A stretch of DNA of 40,580 nucleotides from Clostridia bacterium. Its GTDB lineage: Bacteria; Bacillota; Clostridia; UMGS1883. Under the pieces are notes generated by a model. It had not been told where the DNA came from. It was given only the letters and a program-made list of their open reading frames with translations, and did not search any database. A program made the position numbers and the translations under genes. This document shows positions 24,527 to 40,315 of the stretch, in pieces (positions within the stretch are counted from its first letter, which is position 1; every line of letters begins with the position of its first letter). The stretch lies in the NCBI GenBank assembly GCA_045591865.1, contig JAZNTQ010000112.1, forward strand, positions 1 through 40,580, given 5' to 3'.

Positions 24527-26734
24527 ATGTATATTGTGACAATTCATAATATCGGGGCAGAGCCTATCCCGATTCATAACAGCAAAGAGAAGCTGACAAG
24601 CGGAAAAGTCACAAAGGGCATTAACACTATTGATAGTTTTCAATTTTCAATGTTGCCGTCAAATGCTGGCTTCAATGAAATATACGACTATACAACTCTT
24701 GTAACGGTCTATAACACAAATAGAAACCGTTATGAGTTTTTCGGGCGGGCGCTTTATTCGGAAGATACAATGAGCGACAACGGGGCAATCAAAAAAGAAG
24801 TCATTTGCGAGAGTTATTTAGGCTTCTTTTGCGATAGCCAACAAGAGTATGTACCCGAACAGAATTGGACGGTGGGCGGTCTGCTCCAGCATATTGTAAA
24901 CACGCATAACGCTCAAGTGGAGAGCTACAAGCAATTTACAATAGGCGAAGTGACCGTTACCGACCCGAACGATAATGTGTATTGCGGTATTCAGCGCGAA
25001 AACACGTGGGAAACGCTGAAAAAGAAGTTGCTTGATGTGCTGGGCGGTGAAATCCGTTTCCGTGTTGAGGGCGATGTGATATACCTTGATTATTTAGTGG
25101 AGATCGGCGAAAAATCTTCTACCGAGATTGCTCTATCAAGGAATATGAAATCTATTGCCCGTGAAAAAGACCCGTCCGAAATTGTAACGCGGCTCATTCC
25201 TTTAGGGTGCAAACTTAAGGGAACAGACAACAAGGGCAAAGAAGTTGAAACGGAATACCGCCTGGATATTTCATCGGTCAATAACGGCAAAAAGTACATA
25301 GACGATGAAACCGCCATTGCAATATACGGAATCCGCGTTGCTACGGTTGAGTTTGACGATGTTACGGTTGCAAGTACGCTCTTGAAGAAGGGCGAAGATT
25401 GGCTGATTGAGAACAATAAATTAGCGGTCAGCTATACGATAACTGCGCTTGATTTGTCGCTGATCGGGCTTGATGCCGATGATTTTGAAGTATGCAACTA
25501 TTATCCCGTGAAAAATGCCTTGCTTGGCATTGATGATACAATCCGCGTTATCAAAAAGAACATTGATATTTGCGAAGAAATCAAAAGCACGTTGGAATTC
25601 GGCGATAACTTTGAAACTCTTTCCGCATCAATGAAGCGGTATTCCGATGAGCTGGGCTTGATTACCGCAAACTATGTAACAAATCTGCGCTTTGAAAACG
25701 CAATTGAAAAAACATCAACGCTTATTGAGCAAACGGAAGAAAATATAAGACTTGAAGTGCGTGCACAATATACTGACCTATCCGAAACAGTTTCCGAAAT
25801 AAGCCTTGGTGTCGCCAGTATTGATATGCGTGTTACGGAAATGAGCGGCGGTGTAAACGAGCTTTCCTCAACAGTTTCCGTATTAAGCGTTCAAGTTGGC
25901 TCTATTGATATGCGTGTTACGGAAATGAGCGGCGGTGTAACGGTGGCATTAGCCGAATTAGAGTTGAAAGTTGGACGTGATGAGAACGACCATATTATAA
26001 GTATGATAAATGCTTCGGCTGATGTTATCACCCTAAACTCAAATAGGCTGATTATCAATAGTAGTAATTTTAAGCTCCAAAAAAACGGCACTGTTGTCGC
26101 AAACGCGATAACCATTAACGGCGGAACTCTATCTTTACCCTCGGGAGAAGATAAAGTGGAAATAGGAGCAGAGCGCGGTATGACAATTACGGCATCAGGT
26201 TTCTCCGATGCTCACAAGAGCCGTCTGCGCTATGCTTCCGATAGAATAGCCTATATGAGTGTCGACAGTGACGGTAAAAACCACGCTATGCCCGTACAAA
26301 TTACATTCTACGGCTATTCAGACTACACAGCGAGCGCACTCTTGGGCGGCACGTGGGAGTCTACATCAGCGATTGCCGTTATTTCCGATGCAACAAAGAA
26401 AAAGAATATTGAATCGCTCGACACAAGGTATGAAACATTTTTCGATAATATAGAAGCGCGGCGATTCCAATATAAAGACGGCACAAGCGGAAGATATCAC
26501 ACGGGCTACATTACGCAAGAAATTCAAGAAGCGTTAAACAAAGCAGATATAACGGAAAAAGAATTTGCGGGTATCTGTACGTTTAATCAAGGTGGAGAAG
26601 ATGAATCAAGCGCGTTACGATATGGGGAATTTGTCTCTTTGAACACGTGGCAGATACAAAAGCTCAAAAAGCGTATTGCGGAGCTTGAAACAAAAATCAA
26701 TGAATTAGGAAGCGGGGAAAGCTATGGAGAATAA
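24527..26734 (+). CDS. Tal/tail spike protein with coiled coil and C-terminal intramolecular chaperone (peptidase S74-like)
   Basis: VTRLIPLG prophage tail domain; SDATKKKNI...HTGYITQE...LRYGEF...IQKL. Confidence 0.8.
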   Translation: MYIVTIHNIGAEPIPIHNSKEKLTSGKVTKGINTIDSFQFSMLPSNAGFNEIYDYTTLVTVYNTNRNRYEFFGRALYSEDTMSDNGAIKKEVICESYLGFFCDSQQEYVPEQNWTVGGLLQHIVNTHNAQVESYKQFTIGEVTVTDPNDNVYCGIQRENTWETLKKKLLDVLGGEIRFRVEGDVIYLDYLVEIGEKSSTEIALSRNMKSIAREKDPSEIVTRLIPLGCKLKGTDNKGKEVETEYRLDISSVNNGKKYIDDETAIAIYGIRVATVEFDDVTVASTLLKKGEDWLIENNKLAVSYTITALDLSLIGLDADDFEVCNYYPVKNALLGIDDTIRVIKKNIDICEEIKSTLEFGDNFETLSASMKRYSDELGLITANYVTNLRFENAIEKTSTLIEQTEENIRLEVRAQYTDLSETVSEISLGVASIDMRVTEMSGGVNELSSTVSVLSVQVGSIDMRVTEMSGGVTVALAELELKVGRDENDHIISMINASADVITLNSNRLIINSSNFKLQKNGTVVANAITINGGTLSLPSGEDKVEIGAERGMTITASGFSDAHKSRLRYASDRIAYMSVDSDGKNHAMPVQITFYGYSDYTASALLGGTWESTSAIAVISDATKKKNIESLDTRYETFFDNIEARRFQYKDGTSGRYHTGYITQEIQEALNKADITEKEFAGICTFNQGGEDESSALRYGEFVSLNTWQIQKLKKRIAELETKINELGSGESYGE
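25787..25940 (+). repeat. 84-nt tandem duplication in the tail spike coiled coil
   Basis: 38 identical nt at 25819-25856 and 25903-25940. Confidence 0.85.
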
Positions 26735-26957
26735 ACAGATTGAAAAGCCGTTCACATTGGAATATGCGAACGCAAAAAACAAAATTGTCAATGCGGTCAA
26801 TGAAGCAATGCACGTAAACAAGATACCGTGTTTTCTTCTTGAAAGTATTATTTCGGATATCTTACATCAAGTAGAAGCGGGTGCAAACGAGGAGCGGGGG
26901 AGCGCAAAAGCCGCCTACGAAAAACAGCTTGCAGAAAAAGAAAATACAGGGGGGTAA
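26724..26957 (+). CDS. hypothetical protein
   Basis: coupled ORF after Tal. Confidence 0.6.
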   Translation: MENKQIEKPFTLEYANAKNKIVNAVNEAMHVNKIPCFLLESIISDILHQVEAGANEERGSAKAAYEKQLAEKENTGG

Positions 26958-26960
26958 GAA

Positions 26961-27257
26961 GTGGACGGAATTGTTATTGCGTTGATTGGCGCGGGTGCTT
27001 CAATAATTGTCGAAATATTCGTGTTTCTCGGTGTTGTTCTGACAAACAAAAAATCAAACGAGAAGATCACAACGGATATTCAACACAAGTTAGAAACCGC
27101 GCAAGCGGTCACGGACACGAAGCTGGACGAGCTGACAAGAGAGGTACGGGAGCACAACGGCTTTGCAAGGCGAATGCCCGTTGTAGAAGAGCAAATCAAG
27201 GTTATCAACCACAGGATAAAAGACCTTGAACATCAAAAGAAAGCTGAAAGGGGGTAA
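26961..27257 (+). CDS. membrane protein of the lysis cassette
   Basis: N-terminal TM segment; LTREVREHNGFARRMPVVEEQIKV coiled coil. Confidence 0.65.
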   Translation: MDGIVIALIGAGASIIVEIFVFLGVVLTNKKSNEKITTDIQHKLETAQAVTDTKLDELTREVREHNGFARRMPVVEEQIKVINHRIKDLEHQKKAERG

Positions 27258-27261
27258 AAAA

Positions 27262-27525
27262 ATGAACACGGAAATCGTTGGAGTAGCGGCTATTACAATT
27301 ATCTGCTATCTTGTAGCCGAGGGTGTAAAGGCAACTCCACTTGCTAACAAGTGGATTCCCATTATATGCGGAATCTTCGGGGCTGTTCTCGGTGTTGTCG
27401 GTATGCTGATTATGCCCGACTTCCCCGCAAGCGATTATCTTTCCGCCGTTGCGGTTGGTATCGTTTCGGGACTTGCGGCTACGGGCGCAAATCAAGTTTA
27501 CAAGCAAATCACGAGCAAGGAATAA
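27262..27525 (+). CDS. holin
   Basis: three hydrophobic segments; KWIPIICG...GIVSGLAATGANQVYKQ. Confidence 0.85.
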   Translation: MNTEIVGVAAITIICYLVAEGVKATPLANKWIPIICGIFGAVLGVVGMLIMPDFPASDYLSAVAVGIVSGLAATGANQVYKQITSKE

Positions 27526-27536
27526 ACCCAAAACGG

Positions 27537-27564
27537 AAAACGGGGCGCGAAGCCCCGTTTTTTT
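27537..27564 (+). terminator. intrinsic terminator ending the late operon
   Basis: AAAACGGGGC-GCGAA-GCCCCGTTTTTTT. Confidence 0.9.
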
Positions 27565-27599
27565 GTTGCCTTAATGCCCTTTATACTCACTTTTGTACA

Positions 27600-27721
27600 T
27601 AATACACAAAAAAATATGTAAAACTTTGGTTATTTTGCGAATTGAATTATACGCAAAAAAGAGTATAATAATAGTGTAAACAAAAGATACCCCACGGGGT
27701 AAACAAGAAAGGGAAAAGAAA
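27600..27721 (+). promoter_or_regulatory. promoter-operator unit A (homologous to unit B at 36125)
   Basis: TTGAAT 27642, 16 nt spacer, TATAAT 27664; palindrome TACCCC-AC-GGGGTA 27688-27701. Confidence 0.75.
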
Positions 27722-28204
27722 ATGAAGTTGTACGGTGAAGAATTAAGAAAAAGCATACTTGAACACAAGCAGAGACTTATTGATGCTATGGATCGCCGCC
27801 AAGAACGAATAGACAACTGTGAAACCGATTATGATGATTGCTTTATATCAATACACGTTGAAGCGGACGGCATAAGAGCGTGTGATATGCAGTTGAGAAT
27901 TCTTGACGGTGACGGAATGATGGACTATGAAACAATCGTTGACGAAAACGGCAACGAGGTTAGAATACGCTTCTTCCAAAACAAGTGGGGCGGAACTTCT
28001 GTAGTCGGCAACGGTATATTTGCAAGCTCTATAAAAGCCCTTTTGAAAAAGACGGGTTGGACAGAAAAAACAATTCGCGTTCCCGCGTGGACGAAATTCT
28101 GCACAAGCGGCAGAGGTATGGCGGGCGTGATGTCGGGAAGTACAGAGATTGTTCGCTGGCATACAAATATGAAAACAGGCGAATATGTAGGCTACCCCGA
28201 TTAA
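27722..28204 (+). CDS. hypothetical protein, first gene of operon A
   Basis: 160-aa ORF with RBS behind promoter A. Confidence 0.75.
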   Translation: MKLYGEELRKSILEHKQRLIDAMDRRQERIDNCETDYDDCFISIHVEADGIRACDMQLRILDGDGMMDYETIVDENGNEVRIRFFQNKWGGTSVVGNGIFASSIKALLKKTGWTEKTIRVPAWTKFCTSGRGMAGVMSGSTEIVRWHTNMKTGEYVGYPD

Positions 28205-28215
28205 AGGAAAAGCAA

Positions 28216-28240
28216 GCCGAGGGCGGCGGCAAAACCGCCC
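28216..28240 (+). ncRNA. intergenic H-type pseudoknot, copy 1
   Basis: GCCG-A-GGGCGG-CGGC-AAAA-CCGCCC. Confidence 0.55.
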
Positions 28241-28264
28241 ACTATAAAGAAAGGATATAAGTAT

Positions 28265-28663
28265 ATGGAAATCGAAACAATCAAATTTGTAAGAGAGTAT
28301 GAGAATTACGAAAAGAAATATGATGTTATCTACCGTTCCCGCCGTTGCGTTACATACTCCGAAAACAAACTCCCCCAAAGCGTAAAAAACTTTATCTCCC
28401 AAGCGCAAGCAACAAAGCAATACGACTACACATCAACGCGAAAGAACAAAAACGAAATCATATACAAAAAACATATAAAGTTTCGCGTAACGGCAAAAAT
28501 CGCAGACAGCCCAGCAATGCCAACAAACACATTTTATGCGGAAAAAGAGTTTCTATTTCCCGTTGATAGCAACGTATTCGGCAGAGTAGCCGATGTTAGA
28601 AATTATTACAAAACCGCCTATAAAACAGACAATATAGAGATCATAAAGGCTGTGCAACTATAA
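28265..28663 (+). CDS. hypothetical protein
   Basis: 132-aa ORF, RBS GAAAGGA. Confidence 0.7.
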   Translation: MEIETIKFVREYENYEKKYDVIYRSRRCVTYSENKLPQSVKNFISQAQATKQYDYTSTRKNKNEIIYKKHIKFRVTAKIADSPAMPTNTFYAEKEFLFPVDSNVFGRVADVRNYYKTAYKTDNIEIIKAVQL

Positions 28664-28674
28664 AGAATAGCAAT

Positions 28675-28699
28675 ACCGTGCGGGGCGGTTAAACCCCGC
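28675..28699 (+). ncRNA. intergenic H-type pseudoknot, copy 2
   Basis: ACCG-T-GCGGGG-CGGT-TAAA-CCCCGC. Confidence 0.55.
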
Positions 28700-28715
28700 A
28701 GAAAGGAAAAGAAAT

Positions 28716-29366
28716 ATGAATAACGAATTGAAATCCCTATTACAGCAGATAGGAAATCTGCCCTTTGAAGAACGGGTATCGACTATAAACGAAGTCAAAG
28801 GCTTCTTGAAGCAAATCAGCCCGTTTACTGCCGAGCCTGTCGAATGTGTGCAATGGGTAAAGGCTGACGAGGTTATAGCAAACGATTATAACCCGAACAG
28901 CGTTGCCCCCCCCGAAATGGAATTGCTTCACACATCTATTCAAGAAGACGGCTACACACAGCCTATCGTTGTATGGCAACACGATGGCATATATGAGGTT
29001 GTAGACGGCTTCCACCGTAACCGAGTAGGCAAGGAGTACGCGGACATAAAAGAACGCATACACGGCTATTTGCCCGTTGTCGTTATCAATAATGACCGAG
29101 AGGACAAAGGCGATAGAATTGCTTCTACGATTCGCCACAACCGCGCAAGAGGTAAGCACAAGGTTGAAGCAATGAGCGATATTGTCATTGAGCTCAAGCG
29201 CAGAAATTGGAGTGATGCGAAGATAGGGCGCGAGCTGGGTATGGATGCGGACGAAGTGCTCCGCCTTACGCAGATAACAGGGCTTGCGGAAATGTTCGCG
29301 GACAAAGACTTCTCGCAAGCTTGGGAAGTGGATATGACCGAAGATATTGTTGATACGGAGTTTTAA
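28716..29366 (+). CDS. IbrB-like ParB/Srx-domain protein
   Basis: ANDYNPNSVAPPEMELL..SI.EDGYTQPIV, VVDGFHR, ASTIRHNRARGKH. Confidence 0.85.
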   Translation: MNNELKSLLQQIGNLPFEERVSTINEVKGFLKQISPFTAEPVECVQWVKADEVIANDYNPNSVAPPEMELLHTSIQEDGYTQPIVVWQHDGIYEVVDGFHRNRVGKEYADIKERIHGYLPVVVINNDREDKGDRIASTIRHNRARGKHKVEAMSDIVIELKRRNWSDAKIGRELGMDADEVLRLTQITGLAEMFADKDFSQAWEVDMTEDIVDTEF

Positions 29367-29368
29367 CA

Positions 29369-29782
29369 ATGGAGCGGATATTTCATCACTACAATTTGTG
29401 GGAAGATTACCACGCGGGAATGTATGACGAGAGCAAAGACGGGCGCGCGGAGCGAGTAGCAAAAGCCGCGTATATTTTAGGCACTCCCGATATTTGCCGC
29501 GAAGCAATGCAAAAGGTTGTTGCGGAATGGGAGAAAGCAACGGAATACAATTTTTCAAACGCAGAGATCAACCGCAAAGCGTGGCTGGGGCAAGCCGCCT
29601 GTTGTTGCTACGCGGGCATACACGAGGACGAAACCCGCGAAGCGTGGGGAATTATGACCGAAGCGCAGAGAATAGAAGCAAACGTAATAGCGGGGCAGAT
29701 AATCAAAGAGTGGATTAGTAAGTGGGAATTTGAGAACGATCCGCAAATATCAATGTTTAACGATTGGGGGAATATATTTTGA
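29369..29782 (+). CDS. hypothetical protein between the ibrB-like and ibrA-like genes
   Basis: HHYNLWEDYHAGMY...NRKAWLGQAAC; tightly coupled to both neighbours. Confidence 0.7.
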   Translation: MERIFHHYNLWEDYHAGMYDESKDGRAERVAKAAYILGTPDICREAMQKVVAEWEKATEYNFSNAEINRKAWLGQAACCCYAGIHEDETREAWGIMTEAQRIEANVIAGQIIKEWISKWEFENDPQISMFNDWGNIF

Positions 29783-31005
29783 AAACCTTGCTTGATATGA
29801 ATGTATACGAAGCGGCAAAACAGCGCATTGAGTGGACTTTTGATAACTTCGAAAGGGTTTATGTTTCATTCTCGGCGGGAAAGGATAGCACTTGTATGCT
29901 TCATATGGTTATGGATGAAGCAATCAAAAGAGGGCGCACCGTAGGCGTTCTATTGATTGACCTTGAGGGGCAATACAAAAAGACGATAGACCACGCTTTG
30001 CGTTGCCGAGAGCTATACAAAGAGCATTCGGAGTGGTATTGGGTGTGCTTGCCGATACACTTGAGAAACGCGGTGAGCGTTTATGAGCCGTTTTGGAAGT
30101 GCTGGGATAAAGAAGCGGAAAGCCAATGGATAAGACCGATGCCGAAAGATGTTATAAAGGATTTGGACTATTTCCCGTTCTTTGAAGACGGTATGGAGTT
30201 TGAAGAGTTTGTGCCGCTTTTCGGCGAATGGTATTCGCAGGGCAAGAGTTGTGCTTGCTGTGTCGGCATTAGATCAGACGAAAGCTTGAACAGATACAGA
30301 ACGATTGCCAATCGTTACAAAACCCCGAAAGACGGCAAAATGTGGACAACGAAAGTCACGGAACACACCTACAACGTTTATCCTATATACGATTGGGCTA
30401 CGGAAGACGATTGGATTTATCAAGGGAAAAACCCCGACAAGCCATACAACGAACTATATGATTATATGCACCTTGCGGGGCTTACCATTCATCAGATGCG
30501 AATATGCCAGCCCTACGGGGACGATCAGCGGCGCGGGCTGTGGCTTTTCCACTTGATAGAGCCCGAAACGTGGGCGCGTGTTGTCGCAAGGGTAAACGGG
30601 GCGAATAGCGGCGCGATGTACATAAACGAAAATGGCAATGTCAACGGCTACCGCAAAATCACGAAACCAGCGGGGCATACGTGGAAGTCATTTGCGACCT
30701 TGCTTATAAATTCAATGCCGCCCAAAACGCAGGAACATTACAAAAACAAGATTTACAAATTCGTTAAGTGGTGGGAAACAAGGGGCTACCCCGAGGGAAT
30801 ACCCGATGAAGCGGACATACACCTTGAAACAAAAAAGGATGTGCCGAGCTGGAGAAGAATATGCAAATCTCTGTTGCGTAACGATTATTGGTGCAAGGGA
30901 CTTTCTTTCACACAGCAGAAGTCAACGGCTTACGAAAAATATATAGCAATGATGAAAGCGAAGCGAGAGCAAGACGAAAATCAAATAACCTTATGGGAGA
31001 GTTGA
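29779..31005 (+). CDS. IbrA-like PAPS reductase-family / DUF3440 protein
   Basis: PP-loop VSFSAGKDS, VGIRSDESLNR, YPIYDW...D.W, MRICQPYGDDQR, PSWRRICK.LL.ND..CKGLSF; probable TTG start. Confidence 0.9.
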   Translation: MKTLLDMNVYEAAKQRIEWTFDNFERVYVSFSAGKDSTCMLHMVMDEAIKRGRTVGVLLIDLEGQYKKTIDHALRCRELYKEHSEWYWVCLPIHLRNAVSVYEPFWKCWDKEAESQWIRPMPKDVIKDLDYFPFFEDGMEFEEFVPLFGEWYSQGKSCACCVGIRSDESLNRYRTIANRYKTPKDGKMWTTKVTEHTYNVYPIYDWATEDDWIYQGKNPDKPYNELYDYMHLAGLTIHQMRICQPYGDDQRRGLWLFHLIEPETWARVVARVNGANSGAMYINENGNVNGYRKITKPAGHTWKSFATLLINSMPPKTQEHYKNKIYKFVKWWETRGYPEGIPDEADIHLETKKDVPSWRRICKSLLRNDYWCKGLSFTQQKSTAYEKYIAMMKAKREQDENQITLWES

Positions 31006-31009
31006 GACA

Positions 31010-31303
31010 ATGAGAAAAAGAGGAATGACACCCGAACAGGCTGAAAAGTTAAGGCTAAAGAGAGGACTTGACCGAGGGACAAAGCTCCGCATCGTAAGGG
31101 TGCGGAGCGGGCTGTCGCAAAGTGAGCTTTCGGCGGCTTCGGGTGTACCCGTCAAGACAATACAGCGATACGAGCAAGAGCCGAACAAGGTTGACGGCGC
31201 AAGGCTTGATAAGCTTTGCGGGTTGAGCGAAGCACTCGGCTGTAAAATCACCGATATTATAGAAGATAAAAAGCTGATTGAACGGTTTAACAAAGTTAAA
31301 TAA
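31010..31303 (+). CDS. XRE-family HTH regulator
   Basis: GLSQSELSAASGVPVKTIQRYEQ. Confidence 0.85.
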   Translation: MRKRGMTPEQAEKLRLKRGLDRGTKLRIVRVRSGLSQSELSAASGVPVKTIQRYEQEPNKVDGARLDKLCGLSEALGCKITDIIEDKKLIERFNKVK

Positions 31304-31357
31304 GCCGTTCTTTCGGCTGAAATAAAATGAAAGCGTTTACGTAGAAAGGAAAGAAAA

Positions 31358-32023
31358 ATGAAAAGTTACAAAGGATTTGACAAGGACTTAAAGTGCAGAG
31401 GTTTTCAGTACGAAATCGGAAAAGAGTATGAAGAAGCAAAGGCAGAACAATGCAAAAGCGGTTTTCACGCTTGCGAACATCCTCTTGATGTGCTGGGATA
31501 TTATCCACCGACAGATAATAACCGCTATTGTGAAGTAGAGCAAAGTGGAGAAATCTCAAAGGGCTTTGATGATACCAAAGTCGCAAGCACAAAAATAAAG
31601 ATCGGTGCGGAAATAGGGCTGAAAGGCTTAATCAAAGCGGCTTTTGAGTACACAAAAGAAAGATGCACCAACAGTCAGCAAGGGGAAGCCTTTTCAGCCT
31701 TGACGGGCGGTTACAGTTCAGCCTTGACGGGCGGTTACAGGTCAGCCTTGACGGGCGGTTACAGGTCAGCCTTGACGGGCGGTAACAGTTCAGCCTTGAC
31801 GGGCGGTTACAGGTCAGCCTTGACGGGCGGTGAATATTCCGTCGTCTATGGCGGTGAGGGTGCGAAAGTGAGAGCAAAGAAAGGCTCTGTGCTTGCCCTT
31901 CAATATTGGGTAGATTATGAGTTAAAGGGAATTAAATTCAAAGAGGTTGACGGCGTGAAGATAAAAGAAGATACATACTATAAGCTTTCTGCCGACGGCA
32001 GATTCATAGAAGTAAAGGAGTAA
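31358..32023 (+). CDS. phage protein with YKGFDKDLKCRGFQY N-terminal domain and beta-helix-type repeats
   Basis: GFHACEHPLDVLGYY; SALTGGxx x6; VDGVKIKEDTYY C-terminus. Confidence 0.8.
   Translation: MKSYKGFDKDLKCRGFQYEIGKEYEEAKAEQCKSGFHACEHPLDVLGYYPPTDNNRYCEVEQSGEISKGFDDTKVASTKIKIGAEIGLKGLIKAAFEYTKERCTNSQQGEAFSALTGGYSSALTGGYRSALTGGYRSALTGGNSSALTGGYRSALTGGEYSVVYGGEGAKVRAKKGSVLALQYWVDYELKGIKFKEVDGVKIKEDTYYKLSADGRFIEVKE
31694..31837 (+). repeat. 6 x 24-nt coding tandem repeat
   Basis: TCAGCCTTGACGGGCGGT+6 nt, head to tail with no spacers. Confidence 0.95.
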
Positions 32024-32025
32024 AA

Positions 32026-32253
32026 ATGGCAAGCAAAAACATTTATCAAGATTACGCGGAAGACTTAAAGAAATATCTCACAAGCAAACTTCCCGATGAG
32101 CTGTCTCACATCGTTGCGGAAATCTCGGAGTATATCGCCTGTAAAACGGCAAATTTGATTCACGATGTAATTCGTGAGAGGGACAACGAGTGGGAAGATT
32201 GGAACAATTTGATAAATAAGCAGTTAGAAAGGAAAAGGAGGAACAAAGAATGA
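32026..32253 (+). CDS. hypothetical protein
   Basis: RBS AAAGGAG. Confidence 0.6.
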   Translation: MASKNIYQDYAEDLKKYLTSKLPDELSHIVAEISEYIACKTANLIHDVIRERDNEWEDWNNLINKQLERKRRNKE

Positions 32254-32486
32254 GCGAATATTGCCATAATTGCGCGGCTCGCAACAGTTGCGGCGCGGCG
32301 GTTGCATACGGCTCAATATGTTGTATGGTAAACAGGATGAGAAGCGGGCAAACAAAGGGCGATTTTGTCGGGGCAAGCAAAGAAAAACCGAGGTATTGCG
32401 CTTATTGCGGTCAGCCGTTAAGGGAGATCGGAAACAAACGCTTTTGTAATAATGTGCAATGCCGAAACAGATATAACGATGTTTGA
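32250..32486 (+). CDS. Cys-rich, putative Zn-finger protein
   Basis: CHNC, CAYC, C..V.C motifs; RBS AGGAGG. Confidence 0.6.
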   Translation: MSEYCHNCAARNSCGAAVAYGSICCMVNRMRSGQTKGDFVGASKEKPRYCAYCGQPLREIGNKRFCNNVQCRNRYNDV

Positions 32487-32556
32487 AAGGCGGCGAGGAT
32501 GAAGAATACAGAGTGTTGCCCGATGATTTTTGTAGCTACGACGAAAGGAGAAAGCA

Positions 32557-32859
32557 ATGAATGAACGATATATAGCTGTAAGCCGCCTTTGTGAATGGCT
32601 GAAAAATCTTAAAAGCGGCTTTACGAAAGATGAACTTGTATTCCGTGATGAACTAATAGAGCACTTGCAAGGGAATAACGGCATTGCGAACGTGCTTCCC
32701 GTTGCCGATGTTGTCGAGGTGGTACGGTGCAAGGATTGCCAATTTCGGGGGAACGACCTTTGCGCGATGACTTATTATTCGGAATATGCGGGATGTTATG
32801 TCGATGAAACGGAAGATTGCGATTTTTGCAGTTACGGAGAAAGGGGAAACAATGGCTGA
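32557..32859 (+). CDS. hypothetical phage protein
   Basis: P.ADVVEVVRCKDC...DFCSYGER, a common phage motif. Confidence 0.7.
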   Translation: MNERYIAVSRLCEWLKNLKSGFTKDELVFRDELIEHLQGNNGIANVLPVADVVEVVRCKDCQFRGNDLCAMTYYSEYAGCYVDETEDCDFCSYGERGNNG

Positions 32860-33121
32860 TGTACATATTGGGGATATTCTCCGCAATGATTTTGTAAGTG
32901 AAGAAAGTCCGTTAAGGTATCAAGTAGTTATTCAGCATATAAAAATGCAACGGCAAAACACCGTTAAGTGCTTAACGAGGGAACTCCGTTATTCTTATTA
33001 TTTCAAAAATGATATAGGAAAGGGCATTGAAATAGTAGGGCATTTTGATGTGATGAAAACAATAAAAAGTGCTTTTGTAACGGCATTAGACGAAGCTTTG
33101 AAAGAGAGGGTAAACCGATGA
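32852..33121 (+). CDS. hypothetical protein
   Basis: RBS AAAGGGG before ATG 32852. Confidence 0.55.
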   Translation: MADVHIGDILRNDFVSEESPLRYQVVIQHIKMQRQNTVKCLTRELRYSYYFKNDIGKGIEIVGHFDVMKTIKSAFVTALDEALKERVNR

Positions 33122-33450
33122 GCAAAACGATCTTGTGTCAATGTAGTAATTGCGGATTCCATTTTGAAGTACGTCCTATGTTGGGAATTGCAGAGGGAAT
33201 GTATTATAACGGATATCGCGCCGTGGGTACTGCCTTTTATTGTGATAAATGCGTTAAGACTTGGAAAGAGCGCAACGGGAAAGAATTTGACGAGCAAGTC
33301 ATAAACCCGTCAAAGCAGTTTGCGAACTGGTGGAATAATCAAGTGCAAAGCGTTGTTAAGGACAAAAGCAAAATCAAGACATATCGCATTGTAAACGGCA
33401 TATATGAAGAAGTGCAAAAACGAGTTGACAAAACAGAATATTCAGAATAA
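33118..33450 (+). CDS. hypothetical protein with two CxxC motifs
   Basis: CSNC...CDKC; ATGA overlap. Confidence 0.6.
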   Translation: MSKTILCQCSNCGFHFEVRPMLGIAEGMYYNGYRAVGTAFYCDKCVKTWKERNGKEFDEQVINPSKQFANWWNNQVQSVVKDKSKIKTYRIVNGIYEEVQKRVDKTEYSE

Positions 33451-33456
33451 TATTAA

Positions 33457-33490
33457 CAAAAAAGAAGCGGGCATTTCGCCCGCTTTCTTG
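33457..33490. terminator. bidirectional intrinsic terminator
   Basis: A-tract-AAGCGGGC-ATTTC-GCCCGCTT-TCTT between convergent genes. Confidence 0.8.
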
Positions 33491-33492
33491 CT

Positions 33493-33750
33493 TCAAAATA
33501 CGTTGAAGTGTTCCACGCTTTCGACCGTAATTCCTCTTGACTTAATTTCGGCAAGTATTTTGTGATACTCCGCTTCATCTCTCGCAATTCTTGAAGCGTT
33601 GTGAATAACCATTGTATCGCAGTTTCTCACGGCTTCGAGATCACTTGTTACAAATAGGACTTTGCAACCCTTGTCGGCGGCATAAGCTCTGCAAAACATT
33701 TCTTGCATTGCTTGTCTATGCCCTCTAACGTAGATAATAGCTGTTTTCAT
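33493..33750 (-). CDS. minimal serine-recombinase-fold protein lacking the catalytic Ser
   Basis: AIIYVRG, DTMVIHNASRIARD and RGITVESV align with integrase AVAYARFS, DIVLVHKFNRFARN and MGITVVSV; RBS AAAAGGGGA. Confidence 0.65.
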   Translation of the reverse strand: MKTAIIYVRGHRQAMQEMFCRAYAADKGCKVLFVTSDLEAVRNCDTMVIHNASRIARDEAEYHKILAEIKSRGITVESVEHFNVF

Positions 33751-33754
33751 ATCT

Positions 33755-35356
33755 TCATCCCCTTTTGTTTAATGGCTGTTGATGTGTTTTCCGCTTCACC
33801 GTCTTTTTGATTGTAACGGGTGTTATAATGCGGTTTGCCCCCCTCTTTTTCATTTTATCCCCCCGTAGGGTAGAAAAATCTACCCGTAGGGTGATATCAA
33901 GGTTTTCGGGGTAAACCACAATTTGCTCAACAAATGTGTTGAAGATGATTTGCGCGTATTCTGCATCGGTCGCGCTGACGGTGCGGCGAAAGTTTTCTAA
34001 AAATATCTTTATTTCCTCAAACTCTATATTTTCGGTGCTTTCAAGATATCTGTTCTTTTCAATCTGTTCTTCAAGGTGCTTTTTCTCCGCTTTCAAAGCC
34101 CTGTTTTTATCTTCAAGTATGTTCATTTCAATACCGCCGTTGATATACAAATCCATTAGCTTTGCTTGCTGATCCTTGATTTTATTAAGCTGTTTACTCA
34201 ATTTTTCCGTTGATACTTGCGGTGTTTTTCTCTCTTTTTCGAGCTGTAGCAAAACTTGTTTGGCAATGCTATCAATGGCATTGTCTGTCAATACATTTTC
34301 TGTTATAGTATCTATTATAAGTTTTTCGTAATAATCTTTGTTTAGAGATGGATTGTTGCAACTGTTTTTGTGCTTGGTTTTTCCCGCGCATTTATAGTAT
34401 GCCGCTTCATCTCCTTTTTTGTTTTTCTTTTTCGCGCCGCTTCCGCAGTAGGTGAAGCCGCAAACCCCGCATTTTAATTTCCCTGTCATTATATACTTTC
34501 TTTTTCTCCAACGGGCTTTATTTTTGCTTCGCCGCTTCTCTTGAACGGCTTCCCACAAATCCTCGTCAATTATCGGATTTTTGATAATCCCGTCAAGCCG
34601 TATTGTTTCGGTGCTTGTGTGGTGATAAACGAAGTTACCGACATATTTCTCATTTTGCAAGAGATCGAACACGGTGCGCTCGCTGAATCGTCTGCCGTAT
34701 TGGTTGCGGTAGCCCTCTTCGTTTAAGCGTGCCACAATCTGAGTTTTCGGAACACCGTCCGCGTATTCTTGGAAAATACGCTTTATAATATGCGCGTTTT
34801 CATCGGGATAATAATACCCCTCTTCATCGACAGACAGCCCGAGCAATTTGCCGCCGCCTGTGTGCTTGCCTTTCAAGGCGTTCTCCAGCATTCCTTTTTT
34901 GACCTCAAGTGCAAGGTTTTCGGAGTAATATTGATCCATTGCTTCAATAAGGCTTTCCAATATGCGCCCCTCGGGACTATCGTCAATCGGCTGTGTTACG
35001 GAAACAACCGTAATGCCCATATCGCGCAAGCGTTTTTTATAAATCGCGCTATCGTACTTGTTACGGGCGAAACGGTTGAACTTGTGAACAAGCACAATAT
35101 CAATATCGACTTTGCCCGCGAAAATATCATCAATCATATTTTTGAAATCGTCCCGCATATCTGTTGTAGCTGATTGTGCTTCATCGGTGTATATCTCTAC
35201 AAGTTGGATATTTTCCCGTTCGCAGTATTCGCGGATCGCCCGCAACTGTGCATCAATACTTTCGTCCCTTTGATTGTTGGAGCTGAAACGAGCGTAGGCT
35301 ACAGCCCGCCTTATATGTTCCCCGTTTCGTTTTATCGTTCGTGTCATACTTGCCAT
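33755..35356 (-). CDS. int: large serine recombinase (integrase)
   Basis: YARFSS catalytic motif, RFAR, recombinase domain (LQNEKYVG, PII...W), Zn ribbon CGVCG...YYKC...C, coiled coil. Confidence 0.95.
   Translation of the reverse strand: MASMTRTIKRNGEHIRRAVAYARFSSNNQRDESIDAQLRAIREYCERENIQLVEIYTDEAQSATTDMRDDFKNMIDDIFAGKVDIDIVLVHKFNRFARNKYDSAIYKKRLRDMGITVVSVTQPIDDSPEGRILESLIEAMDQYYSENLALEVKKGMLENALKGKHTGGGKLLGLSVDEEGYYYPDENAHIIKRIFQEYADGVPKTQIVARLNEEGYRNQYGRRFSERTVFDLLQNEKYVGNFVYHHTSTETIRLDGIIKNPIIDEDLWEAVQEKRRSKNKARWRKRKYIMTGKLKCGVCGFTYCGSGAKKKNKKGDEAAYYKCAGKTKHKNSCNNPSLNKDYYEKLIIDTITENVLTDNAIDSIAKQVLLQLEKERKTPQVSTEKLSKQLNKIKDQQAKLMDLYINGGIEMNILEDKNRALKAEKKHLEEQIEKNRYLESTENIEFEEIKIFLENFRRTVSATDAEYAQIIFNTFVEQIVVYPENLDITLRVDFSTLRGDKMKKRGANRIITPVTIKKTVKRKTHQQPLNKRG
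33818..33863. other. candidate attP inside the integrase 3' end
   Basis: imperfect inverted repeat GGGTGTTATAATG / CATTTTATCCCCC (10/13) around a 20-nt spacer. Confidence 0.45.
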
Positions 35357-35363
35357 ATTGTCA

Positions 35364-35687
35364 TCACTCCATATCAAGATACATTTTCATTATTTCCTTG
35401 TAAACTCGTTCCCGTTCGGCTTTCGGTATTGCTTGATTGCAGAGAACGCTTCGTGCCCTTGCCAAAAGCTCAAAGCTCTCGTTCTCGGTCTCTACTCCCC
35501 AATAATCCATTGACACACCGAAGAAATAACATAAGGCTGTCAATTGTTGTAGGTGGGGAACACGCCTATTTGATTCATAGTTGCTGATAGTTGCCCTGCT
35601 CCAATTCATCCGAATTGCAAGCTCCTCTTGTGTCAGCCCTCGCCCCTTTCTCAAAGTTTTTAGTTTACTGCCTATACTTTCGTTCAC
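35364..35687 (-). CDS. XRE-family immunity repressor with no peptidase domain
   Basis: LKTLRKGRGLTQEELA...SRATISNYESNRRVP; upstream of int and divergent from the lytic genes. Confidence 0.85.
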   Translation of the reverse strand: MNESIGSKLKTLRKGRGLTQEELAIRMNWSRATISNYESNRRVPHLQQLTALCYFFGVSMDYWGVETENESFELLARARSVLCNQAIPKAERERVYKEIMKMYLDME

Positions 35688-35793
35688 TATTACACCCCCT
35701 CTCTTATTAGCATAATATCATACATTGTAAACGAAGTGAAACATTTTGCCCGCCAAAAGTCACAAAAAGAAAAACATTTTTGAAAATTTGTTA

Positions 35794-35822
35794 TTGCGCC
35801 CGAACAAATATTCTAATATAAT
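35794..35822 (+). promoter_or_regulatory. sigmaA promoter with a LexA/DinR-like SOS box in the spacer
   Basis: TTGCGC, 17 nt, TATAAT; CGAACAAATATTCT at 35801-35814. Confidence 0.6.
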
Positions 35823-35871
35823 GATTGAGAAAGTTGACAATTAACTGAAAATGATAACGAGGTGTAGCAAT

Positions 35872-36069
35872 TTGCGAAACAAACACGGCTTGACGATTAC
35901 TGAACGAATTACCAAAGATATAGAGCTTGCGGAAATGTCACGAAACGAAGAACACAGAAAATTGCTTGCACATATGGCAATAGCGGCGGCAGAGCTGGCT
36001 ATTGACTTCGGGCTTATTACATATAAAGAGTGGGGAGATTTAACGCGGAGAGCGTTCGCGGCTATGTAG
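35872..36069 (+). CDS. small helical protein, candidate antirepressor
   Basis: RBS GAGGTG with TTG start; single gene between the SOS-box promoter and a hairpin. Confidence 0.5.
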   Translation: MRNKHGLTITERITKDIELAEMSRNEEHRKLLAHMAIAAAELAIDFGLITYKEWGDLTRRAFAAM

Positions 36070-36090
36070 GGCGGGAAGCCCTTTGTTATT
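36068..36090 (+). terminator. putative terminator
   Basis: AGGGC-GGGAA-GCCCT-TTGTTATT. Confidence 0.5.
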
Positions 36091-36124
36091 ATGCTTTTTG
36101 TGTCGATTTGTTTACATTATGTAA

Positions 36125-36256
36125 AACATATACAAAAAAATGTGTAAAAGTTTGTATAAAATGCGAATTGAAATAATACCCAAAAATGGTATAATAATAC
36201 TGTCGATAAGAGATACCCCACGGGGTATAAACAAAAGAAAACAAGGAGAAAGAAAA
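36125..36256 (+). promoter_or_regulatory. promoter-operator unit B
   Basis: TTGAAA 36168, 16 nt spacer, TGnTATAAT 36190; palindrome ATACCCC-AC-GGGGTAT 36213-36228. Confidence 0.75.
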
Positions 36257-36427
36257 ATGAGAATTGCGGCAAAAGGAAAATATTTTATCGAAGCAACGGA
36301 CAAAAAAAGAAATCGTAAATTCTTCCCTTTCTACGATGGATTTGACACCAAAAAGGAAGCGGAAGAATTTTGCGAAAAAATGAACAAGGCAACACCAAAT
36401 TTTGCACATACGGTTGTTAAGCGATAA
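36257..36427 (+). CDS. 56-aa hypothetical protein, first gene of operon B
   Basis: RBS AAGGAG; FDTKKEAEEFCEKMN. Confidence 0.65.
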   Translation: MRIAAKGKYFIEATDKKRNRKFFPFYDGFDTKKEAEEFCEKMNKATPNFAHTVVKR

Positions 36428-36433
36428 CAAGCA

Positions 36434-36463
36434 TAGGCAACGGTGAGAGCCTACAATCTCCCC
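36434..36463 (+). ncRNA. intergenic H-type pseudoknot, copy 3
   Basis: TAGGC-AAC-GGTGAGA-GCCTA-CAA-TCTCCCC. Confidence 0.45.
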
Positions 36464-36483
36464 ACAGAAAGAAAGGAGCAGAT

Positions 36484-36684
36484 ATGGAATTAAAGGATAT
36501 GTGCAAATTCGCAAGACAGCACGTAAAAGAGGGGGGGGCAACGCAAAGCGATTTTGCCGCTATGGTAGGCACAAATCAAACGGAAATTTCGTTTATCGAG
36601 AGAGGTTTTATCCCCGAAAGTCAACAAAAGATTAACAAGATTATTCGTCTTTACAATGAATGCTTAAATAATCGAAACGGCTAA
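36484..36684 (+). CDS. small HTH protein
   Basis: TQSDFAAMVGTNQTEISFIERG. Confidence 0.8.
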   Translation: MELKDMCKFARQHVKEGGATQSDFAAMVGTNQTEISFIERGFIPESQQKINKIIRLYNECLNNRNG

Positions 36685-36716
36685 AACCGACTACAAGAAA
36701 TGGAAAGGCACTTGAA

Positions 36717-36998
36717 ATGGAATTGAAAGAGCATCATAAATTATTAGTCGTATCACTTGTGCTTGCTATGGTAATATGCGTTTGCGCCGCACAAGAATCC
36801 ACAATGGATAGAGTGCAATGGGAGCAAGAAGCCTACATCGTGGAAAAGGGCGATACCCTATGGGGAATAGGCGAAAAGCATTGTCCCGACAGCGTAGATA
36901 TCCGCGAGTGGATAGAAGAGGTAAGGAAAATAAACGAGCTTTCCGATAGCTGTATTTATGCTGGGGATAGATTGATTATTTTAGTGCCGCAAGATTGA
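36717..36998 (+). CDS. membrane-anchored LysM protein (YneA-like)
   Basis: N-terminal TM helix; YIVEKGDTLWGIG...IREWIEEVRKINEL...IYAGDRL. Confidence 0.8.
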   Translation: MELKEHHKLLVVSLVLAMVICVCAAQESTMDRVQWEQEAYIVEKGDTLWGIGEKHCPDSVDIREWIEEVRKINELSDSCIYAGDRLIILVPQD

Positions 36999-37051
36999 GT
37001 GCTGTCTAAAATGTGTCATTATGAAACTATTTATTGAAAGGTGGTGAAGAA

Positions 37052-37258
37052 ATGCGTAAGAATCTAAAATTATTGCGTGTCGAGAATGACTTGACTCAAG
37101 CAGATATGGCAACGCGGCTCGGTGTAACCCGAACAACCTACTGCAATATTGAGAACGGGAAAAGCAAAGGATCAATGACTTTTTGGCTGGCGGTAAAACG
37201 AGCGTTCCCCGAAATCGACATTGACGAAATGGCAAAAGTGAAAGGAGCAGAAAAATGA
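37052..37258 (+). CDS. Cro-like XRE HTH protein
   Basis: LKLLRVENDLTQADMATRLGVTRTTYCNIENG. Confidence 0.85.
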   Translation: MRKNLKLLRVENDLTQADMATRLGVTRTTYCNIENGKSKGSMTFWLAVKRAFPEIDIDEMAKVKGAEK

Positions 37259-37374
37259 GGAACAAGCGGAAAATCATTCTTAACAAGATCGAGAGCGGCA
37301 AAGTAAACAACGCAAGACTTGCGGAGTATTTCGCAAACAAATACAAAGAAAGGGGAATTGAAAATGCCTTTTAA
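37255..37374 (+). CDS. 39-aa peptide (absent from ORF track)
   Basis: RBS AAAGGAG, ATGA overlap; MRNKRKIILNKIESG... Confidence 0.5.
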   Translation: MRNKRKIILNKIESGKVNNARLAEYFANKYKERGIENAF

Positions 37375-37555
37375 GCCTTTAATAAGCGGCGAATCTACCG
37401 TTGAAATTTCGTCAAGCGAATACTTTAACTTGGCAAAGAAAGCCGAACGCATCGCGGCTGTAGAAAGATTCATCAACGCAAGCGAATTTGTAACAGTAAA
37501 AGATATTATGGCTTTGCTGGATATCAAGAAAGAAGAAAGGAAAACAGAGAAATGA
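37364..37555 (+). CDS. hypothetical protein
   Basis: RBS AAAGGGG. Confidence 0.55.
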   Translation: MPFKPLISGESTVEISSSEYFNLAKKAERIAAVERFINASEFVTVKDIMALLDIKKEERKTEK

Positions 37556-38175
37556 ACAATCTTGAAATTTATAACAAGGTGGCAAGCGTTCCGAAAGAAG
37601 CGCAAAAGACCATTACGGCGGGCAGAATTAAGGGAATGACCGATATTAACCCTATGTGGAGAATTAAAACGCTCACAGAAACATTCGGGGTTTGCGGCTT
37701 CGGCTGGAAGTACATAATCACGGACAAAAGAATTGTCGAGGGCGCGGACGGTGTTGTTTGTGCATTCGTTGACATTGATTTGTTTGTGAAGGTTGGGAAC
37801 GAATGGAGCGAAGCAATTCAAGGCACGGGCGGAAGCAGTTTCGTAGCGGTAGAGCGCAACGGCTTATATACAAGCGATGAATGCTTCAAAATGGCTCTTA
37901 CCGATGCTATTTCGGTAGCTTGTAAGGCTTTGGGAATCGGCGCGGATGTATATTGGGCGGCTGGGCGCACCAAATACGATACCAACGGGGACGGCGAACA
38001 ATCCGAGCAACAGCCCGCAACCACGAAAAAGCCGAAAGAACTTGCACCACGCGAAAAGCTGATTGCAAAGCTCAAGGAAAAGGGAATCAGTGCGAAAGAA
38101 TACGCGAAAGAAAAAGGGCTTGAGGGCGCAGTCCCCGATAGCCGATTTGAAGAACTGCTTGCGGAGCTGGGGTGA
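37552..38175 (+). CDS. Rad52/Sak-like single-strand annealing protein
   Basis: DINPMWRI..LTETFG.CG.GW...DECFKMALTDA...ACK.LGIGADVY. Confidence 0.75.
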   Translation: MNNLEIYNKVASVPKEAQKTITAGRIKGMTDINPMWRIKTLTETFGVCGFGWKYIITDKRIVEGADGVVCAFVDIDLFVKVGNEWSEAIQGTGGSSFVAVERNGLYTSDECFKMALTDAISVACKALGIGADVYWAAGRTKYDTNGDGEQSEQQPATTKKPKELAPREKLIAKLKEKGISAKEYAKEKGLEGAVPDSRFEELLAELG

Positions 38176-38179
38176 GTAA

Positions 38180-39088: not shown

Positions 39089-39124
39089 ATGTGTCGGTTT
39101 GTTAGCAATTTAGAGGAAATGTAA

Positions 39125-39802: not shown

Positions 39803-40311
39803 CGGGCAAAATTCAAGGGCTTGCGCTCGATTTCTCCACAAAGAAAGCAACGCTCACTTTATCAATCAATGAGGAAGCGGCGGCAAAGAATCTGTTTGAC
39901 GAATTACACGAAGCCGAAAAGCTGTCAATCAAGATTGATAAATACCGAGAAAAACGCTCTTTGAACGCGAACAATTACGCTTGGAAGCTCTTAACCGAAA
40001 TGGGAAACGTACTCCGAGCCAACAAAGAAGAAATATATCTTGAAATGCTGAAACGCTACGGGCAAAGCGAAATAATCAGCGTATTATCGCATATCCCGAT
40101 AAGCGAATATGTGAAGTATTGCGAAGAAGCGGGCGAAAGCACTCTGAACGGTAAGCTGTTCAAGCATTACAAGGTTTACAAAGGCTCAAGCGAATTTGAC
40201 ACGCGGGAAATGTCAATCTTCCTTGACGGTGTTGTGAGTGATGCACAAGGACTCGGCATACAGACCGAAACACCCGAACGGATCGCAAAGCTGAAATCGT
40301 TATGGGGGTGA
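39790..40311 (+). CDS. NinB-like recombination protein
   Basis: KRSLNANNYAW...GSSEFDTREMSIFLDG...A..LGI. Confidence 0.65.
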   Translation: MYEITGKIQGLALDFSTKKATLTLSINEEAAAKNLFDELHEAEKLSIKIDKYREKRSLNANNYAWKLLTEMGNVLRANKEEIYLEMLKRYGQSEIISVLSHIPISEYVKYCEEAGESTLNGKLFKHYKVYKGSSEFDTREMSIFLDGVVSDAQGLGIQTETPERIAKLKSLWG

Positions 40312-40315
40312 ATAA

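Follow-up and report, generated by a model that had tools for sequence, protein, structure and literature searches.

Paired early-type promoters sharing a palindrome in a temperate phage contig of a Clostridia bacterium

Two promoter units with an identical palindrome

The DNA analysed here (the window) is the whole of contig JAZNTQ010000112.1 from a Clostridia bacterium, 40,580 nucleotides long, which is one of 114 contigs in an assembly of 1.46 Mb (GCA_045591865.1; contig C112) and has no terminal overlap. It is a temperate siphovirus-like phage contig. The structural genes extend to position 26734 and are followed by a holin gene and its terminator, a promoter unit (Unit A) with a long run of accessory genes, an integrase and a repressor on the minus strand, and a second, homologous promoter unit (Unit B) that leads into the early genes. 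Both units carry the 14-bp palindrome TACCCCACGGGGTA shortly past the −10 box, and this shared arrangement is the subject of the present report. The two units are composed as follows.

27590-27721: Unit A
27590-27635, plus strand: upstream region of Unit A, with an A-tract and TGT-containing inverted repeats that are candidate operators or a candidate UP (upstream promoter) element; homologous to 36110-36161
27636-27673, plus strand: core promoter of Unit A, with TGCGAATTGAA, the −35 box TTGAAT (27642-27647), a 16-nt spacer, and the −10 box TATAAT (27664-27669), extended as TATAATAATA
27688-27701, plus strand: palindrome TACCCCACGGGGTA of Unit A, at about +12 to +25 of the predicted transcript; candidate operator or leader hairpin
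36110-36256: Unit B
36110-36199, plus strand: upstream region and core promoter of Unit B, with TGCGAATTGAA (36162-36172), the −35 box TTGAAA (36168-36173), and the TG-extended −10 box TATAAT (36190-36195)
36214-36227, plus strand: second copy of the palindrome TACCCCACGGGGTA, in Unit B

A preliminary description of the window had placed two homologous units at these sites, with a common −35 element, a 16-nt spacer, a common −10 element, and an identical palindrome 18 nt past the −10 box, and both observations hold. The units align over 166 columns with a mean column identity of 83%. In ungapped comparisons, TGCGAATTGAA is identical at 11/11 positions, TATAATAATA at 10/10, and the palindrome, which starts 18 nt past TATAAT in both units, at 14/14. 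The spacer is 16 nt when counted from TTGAAT or TTGAAA, and 17 nt lie between TGCGAATTGAA and TATAAT. The flanks have drifted, with identities of 9/17 in the spacer, 9/14 between the −10 box and the palindrome, 10/20 in the 20 nt past the palindrome, and 38/60 in the 60 nt upstream. Set against 66/111 (~59%) over these four segments, the palindrome is conserved to the same degree as the −35 and −10 elements.

Control searches gave few or no comparable matches. The exact palindrome occurs twice in the window and twice in the entire assembly, and its reversed control does not occur at all. When up to three mismatches are allowed, the window holds 10 matches (0.90 expected), a number reached in none of 100 shuffles. 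The pattern TTGAAW-N16-TATAATAATA with at most two mismatches has two matches (0.14 expected), which 0/100 shuffles attain. Both units have near-consensus hexamers at a distance (16 nt) within the 16-18 nt by which sigma-70/sigma-A promoters were recognised, and they rank as the top two of 30 such sites in the interval 25000-40580 (Unit B 11/12, Unit A 10/12); the total of 30 is itself not above that in shuffles (26.6 ± 5.1). At both units, we infer promoter activity, a transcription start, protein binding, and co-regulation.

Upstream of the −35 boxes, TGT motifs recur every ~10-11 nt (36083-36172 and 27590-27646, and likewise in L011, L017, and other related loci) and run into TGCGAAT. Together with inverted repeats of the form ACAAA-N14/15-TTTGT, this periodicity points to multiple binding sites aligned along one helical face, or to DNA that is intrinsically bent. 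A degenerate copy of the palindrome, TACCCTATGGGGAA, with three mismatches, is present at 36854-36867 within the LysM gene of the Unit B operon.

The promoter family and the position past the −10 box

When used alone as a query, the CI-like repressor of the window identified no related locus, whereas an alignment of two repressors recovered 28 relatives in viral contigs. A separate scan of viral contigs with TGCGAATTGWAA-N14-17-TAYAAT yielded 53 stretches. After removal of duplicates and of two loci with unrelated context (L053 and L071), 35 non-redundant units remained, including the two from the window. We define the TGCGAATTGAAA early-promoter family by TTTG[GT] at most 18 nt upstream of TGCGAAT, followed after 19-23 nt by TAYAAT, a purine-rich leader, a Shine-Dalgarno (SD) sequence, and an open reading frame (ORF). 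Both window units and 33 others conform to this definition. Common to the family are the −35 motif, the purine-rich leader, the SD sequence, and, as judged by eye, upstream inverted repeats of the type ACAAA...TTTGT.

By visual inspection, the window and many of the 28 repressor-linked loci have the same layout, in which the repressor is followed by a small divergent gene with a GC-rich hairpin and then by a TGCGAAT unit. Given this position in relatives, Unit B is the ordinary, conserved early-operon promoter of this widespread temperate-phage family, located beyond the repressor and the small divergent gene, and Unit A is an additional copy. Unit B leads into Cro-like, recombination, and methylase genes and is the main early promoter. 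The idea of a co-regulated early regulon, put forward in the preliminary description, stands to the extent that there are two strong-looking copies of one early-type promoter, for which co-regulation of both operons is the natural reading; the part that does not stand is the treatment of Unit B as a separate anti-defence operon.

Several units per phage are common in the family. There are two in L019 and in L046, three in L060, and two back to back in L089. Duplicated units with concordant leader elements are present in the window, in L019, where the second unit lies on the far side of the immunity region and drives a run of small ORFs, and in a phage termed G087. The latter has two near-identical promoter-leader units, including TACCCCGCAGGGTA, which are ~1.6 kb apart and bracket four small ORFs ahead of a Cro-like gene. 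G087 (L402/L403) is a complete relative with a 79-nt direct terminal repeat, and its duplicated unit spans the contig junction. A further viral contig, G088 (L003/L028), has a palindrome identical to that of the window, again 18 nt past the −10 box of the promoter that diverges from the repressor. Its repressor is 48% identical to that of the window, and its integrase just 29%.

The segment past the −10 box is occupied in various ways across the family. Inverted repeats with arms of at least 5 nt lie within 45 nt past the −10 box in 15 of the 35 units, whereas 300 shuffles averaged 4.9 and never exceeded 11. The clearest class consists of GAAC-N4-GTTC, which we take to be the Cheo/LexA consensus. 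Strict boxes of this kind occupy the slot in 6 of the 28 repressor-linked loci, 7-18 nt past the −10 box of the repressor-divergent promoter. These six belong to a total of seven in 169,128 bases, where ~2.6 would be expected anywhere. Among the 35 family units, three carry a Cheo-like box (0.04 in shuffles). The LexA boxes in the slot keep their arms while varying in the centre, as is characteristic of a site bound by protein. The host lexA gene (G000:C58, 7307-7486, minus strand) is preceded, just upstream of TATAAT, by CGAACAAATGTTTG, which is by its sequence a Firmicutes-type SOS box and thus supports the consensus that we assumed.

Neither Unit A nor Unit B has a Cheo box; the slot holds TACCCCACGGGGTA instead. 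Besides the window, two phages (L026/G087 and L028/G088) have TACCC-type elements there; the arms are constant, and the centre is CACG in the window and G088 and CGCA in G087. The remaining units have other hairpins in the slot, or none. Taken together, the comparisons point to the post −10 slot as a modular regulatory position, which in part of the family is clearly, to judge by its sequence, a repressor operator. The preliminary description had proposed that the palindrome is an operator, and the LexA boxes that relatives carry in the same slot favour that part of the proposal.

Additional palindromes mark the family. Many promoters have a perfect, phage-specific palindrome between the −35 and −10 boxes that overlaps the −10 box (L042/L088, L044/L038, L065, L069, and L063). 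In L042/L088 and L065, this spacer palindrome recurs ~50-60 nt upstream, which resembles a classical operator pair.

The pattern TACCC-N4-GGGTA is also used outside the family. Two copies that are 8-38 nt apart were found in at least 120 viral contigs (L278-L397) with GC contents from 29 to 66%. All pair counts given here refer to the 120 listed contigs and have no scrambled-pattern control: identical centres in both copies occur in 63/120, a preferred gap of 26-28 nt accounts for 54 of 129 pairs, and the order −10 box, palindrome, SD sequence, and start codon is present in 36/120, with the palindrome also adjacent to a TTGACA −35 box in 16 of those 36. The sites in the listed contigs adjoin a family of CI-like helix-turn-helix (HTH) proteins with a conserved G[VI]PYTTI[DA]G helix in eight loci, and a Cro-like family in nine. 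The switch promoter of L130 (TTGACA-17-TATAGT) is bracketed by three sites 31-33 nt apart, of which two are perfect and one is degenerate. Iteron-like tandem arrays with a period of 23-27 nt were seen by eye in L282, L285, L311, and L339. In the assembly, the pattern has three sites, two in the phage and one that by eye is coding, and none was found in host intergenic DNA. Given these arrays, the window palindrome is probably a site that is bound as DNA.

Other searches for the palindrome were less informative. The exact sequence behind TATAAT gave two stretches in viral contigs (the related L003 and the unrelated L004), three in genome contigs with the titles Alphaproteobacteria, Gemmatimonadota, and Desulfoprunum, whose context by eye is unlike that of the units, and one in metagenome contigs with unrelated context. 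An order-level search of 87 genomes with one mismatch found, besides the window's own, three sites in two genomes, all of which look coding by eye. A loose pattern of palindrome plus GGAG produced mostly chance matches, with a −10-like hexamer upstream in just 6 of the 120 listed loci.

Readings of the palindrome

We propose that the palindrome is a DNA operator that couples the two operons. A repressor dimer would bind the 14-bp element and obstruct RNA polymerase at each of the two promoters; silencing and release of the accessory operon behind Unit A would then coincide with those of the early operon behind Unit B. Unit A itself is a duplicate of the early promoter, placed behind the holin terminator, where it would drive a mosaic accessory operon. 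We assign this reading a probability of about 0.5.

A number of findings weigh against this proposal. Each window promoter has a single site, compared with two or three in the clear operator cases, and the three units of L060 have three different leader elements, so concordance within a phage is not universal. Leaders of many family members carry hairpins with long or GNRA-like loops, which look more like RNA elements than operators. A stretch of 27 bases around the palindrome is identical between Unit A and G088 although their promoters differ, and conservation of the palindrome may therefore partly reflect recent exchange rather than selection. Finally, no binder was found among the candidates that were compared. 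The palindrome is not a site for host LexA, given the different motif CGAACAAATGTTTG in front of host lexA. The CI-like repressor has the recognition helix RATISNYE, which recurs unchanged in phages whose leader elements are quite unlike one another, and the helix of the Cro-like protein encoded at 37052 differs between the window and G087/G088. The two HTH proteins of the cargo operons, encoded at 31010 and 36484, have no homologue in G087 or G088, the two complete phages that carry the palindrome (0/2 each). A CI protein of the array type was found neither in the window nor in the assembly by a hidden Markov model (HMM) of eight such CI proteins.

In the window, that HMM produced no more than generic HTH scores (E 1.6e-5 and 2.8e-5), and models built from the array-flanking CI and Cro families likewise matched only at the generic HTH level. 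When the CI and Cro proteins of L130 were compared with the assembly, there was no convincing relative, and the best match (E 0.001, contig C76) covers only the C-terminal part of CI. Six window ORFs do have homologues in both G087 and G088, namely 12-413, 7482-9137, 15185-18313, the integrase, the repressor, and the Cro-like gene. From these comparisons, no phage HTH protein appears to track the palindrome.

A role in RNA is the principal alternative and, although clearly less probable than the operator, deserves serious consideration. On this account, each early transcript would have a 5-6 bp hairpin ~11 nt in from its 5′ end, which would block decay from that end or bind a regulator of the 5′ untranslated region (UTR). 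The hairpins have predicted stabilities of −6.7 kcal/mol in Unit A and −8.1 kcal/mol in Unit B and dominate the leader ensemble. The excess of inverted repeats among the 35 leaders counts in favour of this account, as do long loops of the form GGGGG-N16-CCCCC and GAAA or GCAA loops, which suit RNA better than a dimeric operator. The variant arms of L024, as judged by eye, can pair through G-U on the sense strand only. Moreover, HTH proteins that bind both an inverted repeat in a promoter and hairpins in the 5′ UTR are documented for Aca1 and Aca2 (PMC13551039). The folding statistics do not favour the RNA account: of the 35 leaders, 20 fold better as the sense strand and 14 as the antisense strand (Wilcoxon p 0.21), which gives no sense advantage, and the whole-leader z-scores of the window units are modest (−1.37 and −2.34). 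Rfam has no match at the gathering score anywhere in the window, with only chance-level rows in 27500-27800. The hairpin makes no contact with the SD sequence, and identical arms occur upstream of −35 boxes in other phages, where they are not transcribed. In Firmicutes, a 5′ stabiliser hairpin is most effective when only a few nucleotides separate it from the 5′ end, and the distance of ~11 nt here counts against such a role. The DNA and RNA readings are not exclusive, and by analogy with reports on Aca1 and Aca2, a regulator acting on the RNA could possibly act on the DNA too.

The palindrome might instead have no function of its own and be a remnant of promoter-leader exchange between phages and of promoter duplication. 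The leader does behave as a modular segment, in that L011 and L012/L014 have near-identical repressor regions joined to different leaders. The 27 bases shared by Unit A and G088 despite their differing promoters would also fit, as would the several family units that have no leader element at all. We nevertheless regard this explanation as unlikely, since the palindrome is identical at 14/14 positions amid flanks of ~59% identity and the TACCC-type slot site is kept in three phages whose integrases are 27-29% identical.

A last possibility is antitermination of the nut/boxB type, in which a phage antiterminator would read the hairpin in both early transcripts. Lambdoid phages have a shared leader hairpin on their early transcripts, and in the window both operons are long and the same leader hairpin is present on two early-type transcripts. 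We consider this mechanism very improbable. No N-like or Q-like protein was recognised in scans of the window (N-like proteins being small and diverse), the Unit A operon has no evident internal plus-strand terminators that would need suppression, and LexA boxes fill the same slot in relatives.

Cargo genes, known systems, and phage setting

The genes that follow the two promoters are listed below.

27722-28204, plus strand: g160, the first gene of Unit A, a conserved protein of 160 aa
28265-28663, plus strand: g132, a rare small protein with a sub-threshold DUF4364 match only
28716-31005, plus strand: three-gene module of a ParB_N (IbrB-like) gene (28716-29366), g137 (29369-29782), and a PAPS-reductase/DUF3440 (IbrA-like) gene (29764-31005)
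31010-31303, plus strand: HTH_3/HTH_26 protein of 97 aa (Pfam E 3e-9), inside the Unit A operon
31358-33450, plus strand: rest of the Unit A operon, with a DUF7666 protein (31358-32023) and six small ORFs; a bidirectional terminator at 33465-33485 ends the operon
36257-36998, plus strand: variable cargo slot of Unit B, with a 56-aa ORF (36257-36427), a weak HTH protein (36484-36684), and a LysM protein (36717-36998)
37008-37258, plus strand: junction motif (37008-37045) conserved in the family and Cro-like HTH gene (37052-37258); the conserved early operon continues from here

Transcription from Unit A would reach 33465 and cover a 5.8-kb operon, because there is no strong plus-strand terminator before that position. 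Judged by their distribution, the genes of this operon are a mosaic of independently mobile units. The g160 protein has 185 homologues (57-93% identity among the best 120), and in 35 of 35 viral loci that encode it, no other Unit A gene lies within 5 kb. Similarly, among 27 viral loci of the three-gene module (L251-L277), the ParB-like and IbrA-like genes occur together in 26 and g137 in 25, in two gene orders, and these loci lack g160, g132, HTH 31010, the DUF7666 protein, the promoter family, and the palindrome. HTH 31010 is absent from 27/27 module loci and from 35/35 g160 loci.

The small genes resist assignment. For g160, there is no Pfam, PHROG, PADLOC, or NCBIfam family; its members have an invariant Cys, an invariant Asp, and a C-terminal RWHTNM..G.Y.G.P motif. 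An AlphaFold2 model (predicted local distance difference test, pLDDT, 94.2) consists of a helical hairpin and a beta domain. The whole model has no Foldseek match at E ≤ 0.001, the beta domain not having been searched alone, and the best VIA-align result (Z 7.8) covers only the N-terminal helical hairpin, with uninformative matches in the PDB. A search with g132 returned 15 proteins, which are the window's own, six full-length homologues, and eight half-length homologues of 72-77 aa. The 56-aa protein had two homologues in one search and five small relatives in another. Its model (beta-beta-alpha-beta, pLDDT 83.6) has no Foldseek match in the PDB at E ≤ 0.001, its best ESM Atlas score is 0.87 without a family, and it has no significant similarity to the first ORF of G088 (E 0.25). 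Thus the fold searches of g160 and the 56-aa ORF that the preliminary description had suggested gave no informative PDB match. One homologue of a cargo protein comes from a metagenome-assembled genome labelled Oscillospiraceae. The IbrA-like protein has weak DndC-like matches, and a literature search on IbrA/IbrB and on DUF3440 with ParB found no functional study of the phage module.

That relatives would carry the same promoter with variable cargo was expected in the preliminary description and is borne out. First ORFs could be assigned behind 32 of the 35 family units and fall into 27 clusters. Ten of the 32, comprising most of the longer ones and the first ORFs of L019, were scanned against Pfam, with three above the cut-off, two below it, and five without a match. 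The families above the cut-off are ArdA in L055 (E 6e-39, antirestriction), pentapeptide repeats with DUF5758 in L083, and AAA_24 in L073. The HTH gene that is conserved beside these variable genes is the Cro-like 37052, with homologues in G087 (40% identity) and G088 (38%), and not 36484 or 31010. The junction and an N-terminal HTH segment of the form ...NLK..R...LTQ were seen by eye in relatives. The gene content given in the preliminary description is therefore as it was stated, except that the family-conserved HTH gene after Unit B is 37052-37258 and not 36484.

The preliminary description had interpreted the locus through the anti-CRISPR and anti-CRISPR-associated (acr-aca) operons, with an HTH protein of the operons (36484 and/or 31010) autorepressing both promoters through the palindrome and with 27722, 28265, and 36257 encoding anti-defence proteins. 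There are real likenesses. As in acr-aca operons, a strong early promoter has an inverted repeat near the start, variable small genes are followed by an HTH gene in each operon, and the motif precedes more than one operon. The diversity of small genes behind this promoter type and the ArdA of L055 also agree with the idea. Published work on acr-aca operons describes Aca proteins that recognise inverted repeats at promoters as well as hairpins in the 5′ UTR and that control several operons jointly (PMC9410906, PMC8633003, PMC13551039), and a single Aca that controls several neighbouring operons through repeated motifs is reported (PMC13551039).

Nonetheless, we find this interpretation hard to sustain and rate it as unlikely. 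HTH 31010 and HTH 36484 are absent from both complete phages that have the palindrome in the slot, so the operon HTH genes do not co-occur with the palindrome in relatives. HTH 36484 scores 21.9 bits, under the Pfam cut-off of 23, and neither protein resembles a solved Aca protein by sequence. HTH 31010 is the sixth gene of a mosaic operon rather than an adjacent partner, and it travels with the three-gene module in 0/27 loci. No known Acr or Aca homologue was recognised, the HTH that the family does conserve is an early regulator of the Cro type, and the promoter serves the early genes of the phage in general and is not one dedicated to anti-defence. The g160 family is strongly conserved and widely dispersed, unlike a typical fast-evolving Acr. 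For the three ORFs, PADLOC, Pfam, and PHROG give no anti-defence signal, and NCBIfam likewise gives nothing; with no known family or fold from which a function could be assigned, an anti-defence role stays conjecture. What is supported is the broader notion of a slot for variable cargo that is expressed early and under shared control. The feature is real and non-random, and it is an informative variant of known, ordinary phage regulation rather than the undescribed system that had been suggested or a proven anti-defence system.

Several kinds of ordinary regulation come close. Promoter P1 of GIL01 is a LexA-controlled early/lytic promoter of a temperate phage (PMC4551915). Phage promoters under LexA control resemble the units here in having a repressor site in or just past the early core promoter, with a Cheo-type box in the slot of 6/28 relatives. 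They differ from the window, whose palindrome is no Cheo box and does not occur in intergenic DNA of the host. A further parallel is provided by the TACCC-bearing CI/Cro regions of L130, L294, L316, L320, L329, L334, L355, and L375. These have a palindrome of the same 5-4-5 form, one copy of which lies 10-13 nt past the −10 box, just before the SD sequence of the first lytic gene. However, they have two or three sites, one of them in the spacer, together with a CI of the G[VI]PYTTI[DA]G type, whereas in the window each promoter has a single site and such a CI is lacking.

Temperate phages can carry morons and accessory cassettes, each under its own promoter, where the lysis genes meet the integrase. 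Unit A and its cargo resemble them in lying between the holin terminator and the integrase, flanked by terminators, and in consisting of independently mobile genes. Unlike in such cassettes, the Unit A promoter duplicates the early promoter of the phage itself and is not an unrelated constitutive one, which predicts lytic-early expression rather than expression from the prophage. The accessory cassette and the early genes are probably turned on jointly.

On a broader and rather speculative reading, which we hold to be doubtful, the TGCGAATTGAAA promoter and its slot would form a portable expression cassette of a large group of gut Firmicutes phages. The first-gene slot would be a hotspot for counter-defence genes, and the TACCC-N4-GGGTA element would be read as DNA, and perhaps as RNA, by a small regulator, which would join duplicated units in a single early regulon. 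If so, the promoter could serve as an anchor for finding anti-defence genes (g160, g132, and the 56-aa protein being examples), as aca genes do now. If the operator reading holds, duplication of the early promoter together with its operator, as in the window, L019, and G087, would be a simple way for temperate phages to wire acquired cassettes into their early programme. The promoter family is recognisable, and its variable first-gene slot could help to find early-expressed counter-defence genes in phages of uncultured gut Firmicutes. TACCC-N4-GGGTA is a candidate for a binding-site motif that recurs among phages and for which few binders have been characterised. No new principle is involved, as early-promoter operators, LexA-controlled phage promoters, and promoter-anchored accessory genes are already known.

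The remaining features of this part of the contig are as follows.

27226-27525: Hol44-type holin
27541-27566, plus strand: intrinsic terminator with a GC stem and U7 that closes the tail/holin module directly before Unit A
33755-35687, minus strand: lysogeny module with a large serine integrase (33755-35377) and a CI-like HTH repressor of 107 aa (35364-35687)
35851-36082, plus strand: small conserved gene divergent from the repressor, including its hairpin; probable start TTG at 35872, end at 36069

The terminator hairpin at 27541-27566 has a predicted stability of −18.1 kcal/mol, with 0/200 shuffles equally stable. The hairpin at 36068-36082, behind the small divergent gene and ahead of Unit B, is a weak terminator (−8.7 kcal/mol, z 0.05). 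A megablast search with 27000-37000 found no similar DNA among deposited phages. Rightward of the repressor, the early genes encode the Cro-like HTH protein (37052), a YqaJ-type exonuclease, and a C5 methylase.

The small divergent gene (35851/35872-36069) sits where cro would be expected, and it has no family match and no obvious HTH. As seen by eye, the gene (~65-72 aa) and its GC-rich hairpin are kept in many relatives, for example L011-L022, L034, and L037. Directly downstream of the full serine integrase, an 85-aa ORF (33493-33750, minus strand) has a partial Resolvase N-terminal domain and may be the remnant of a second recombinase.

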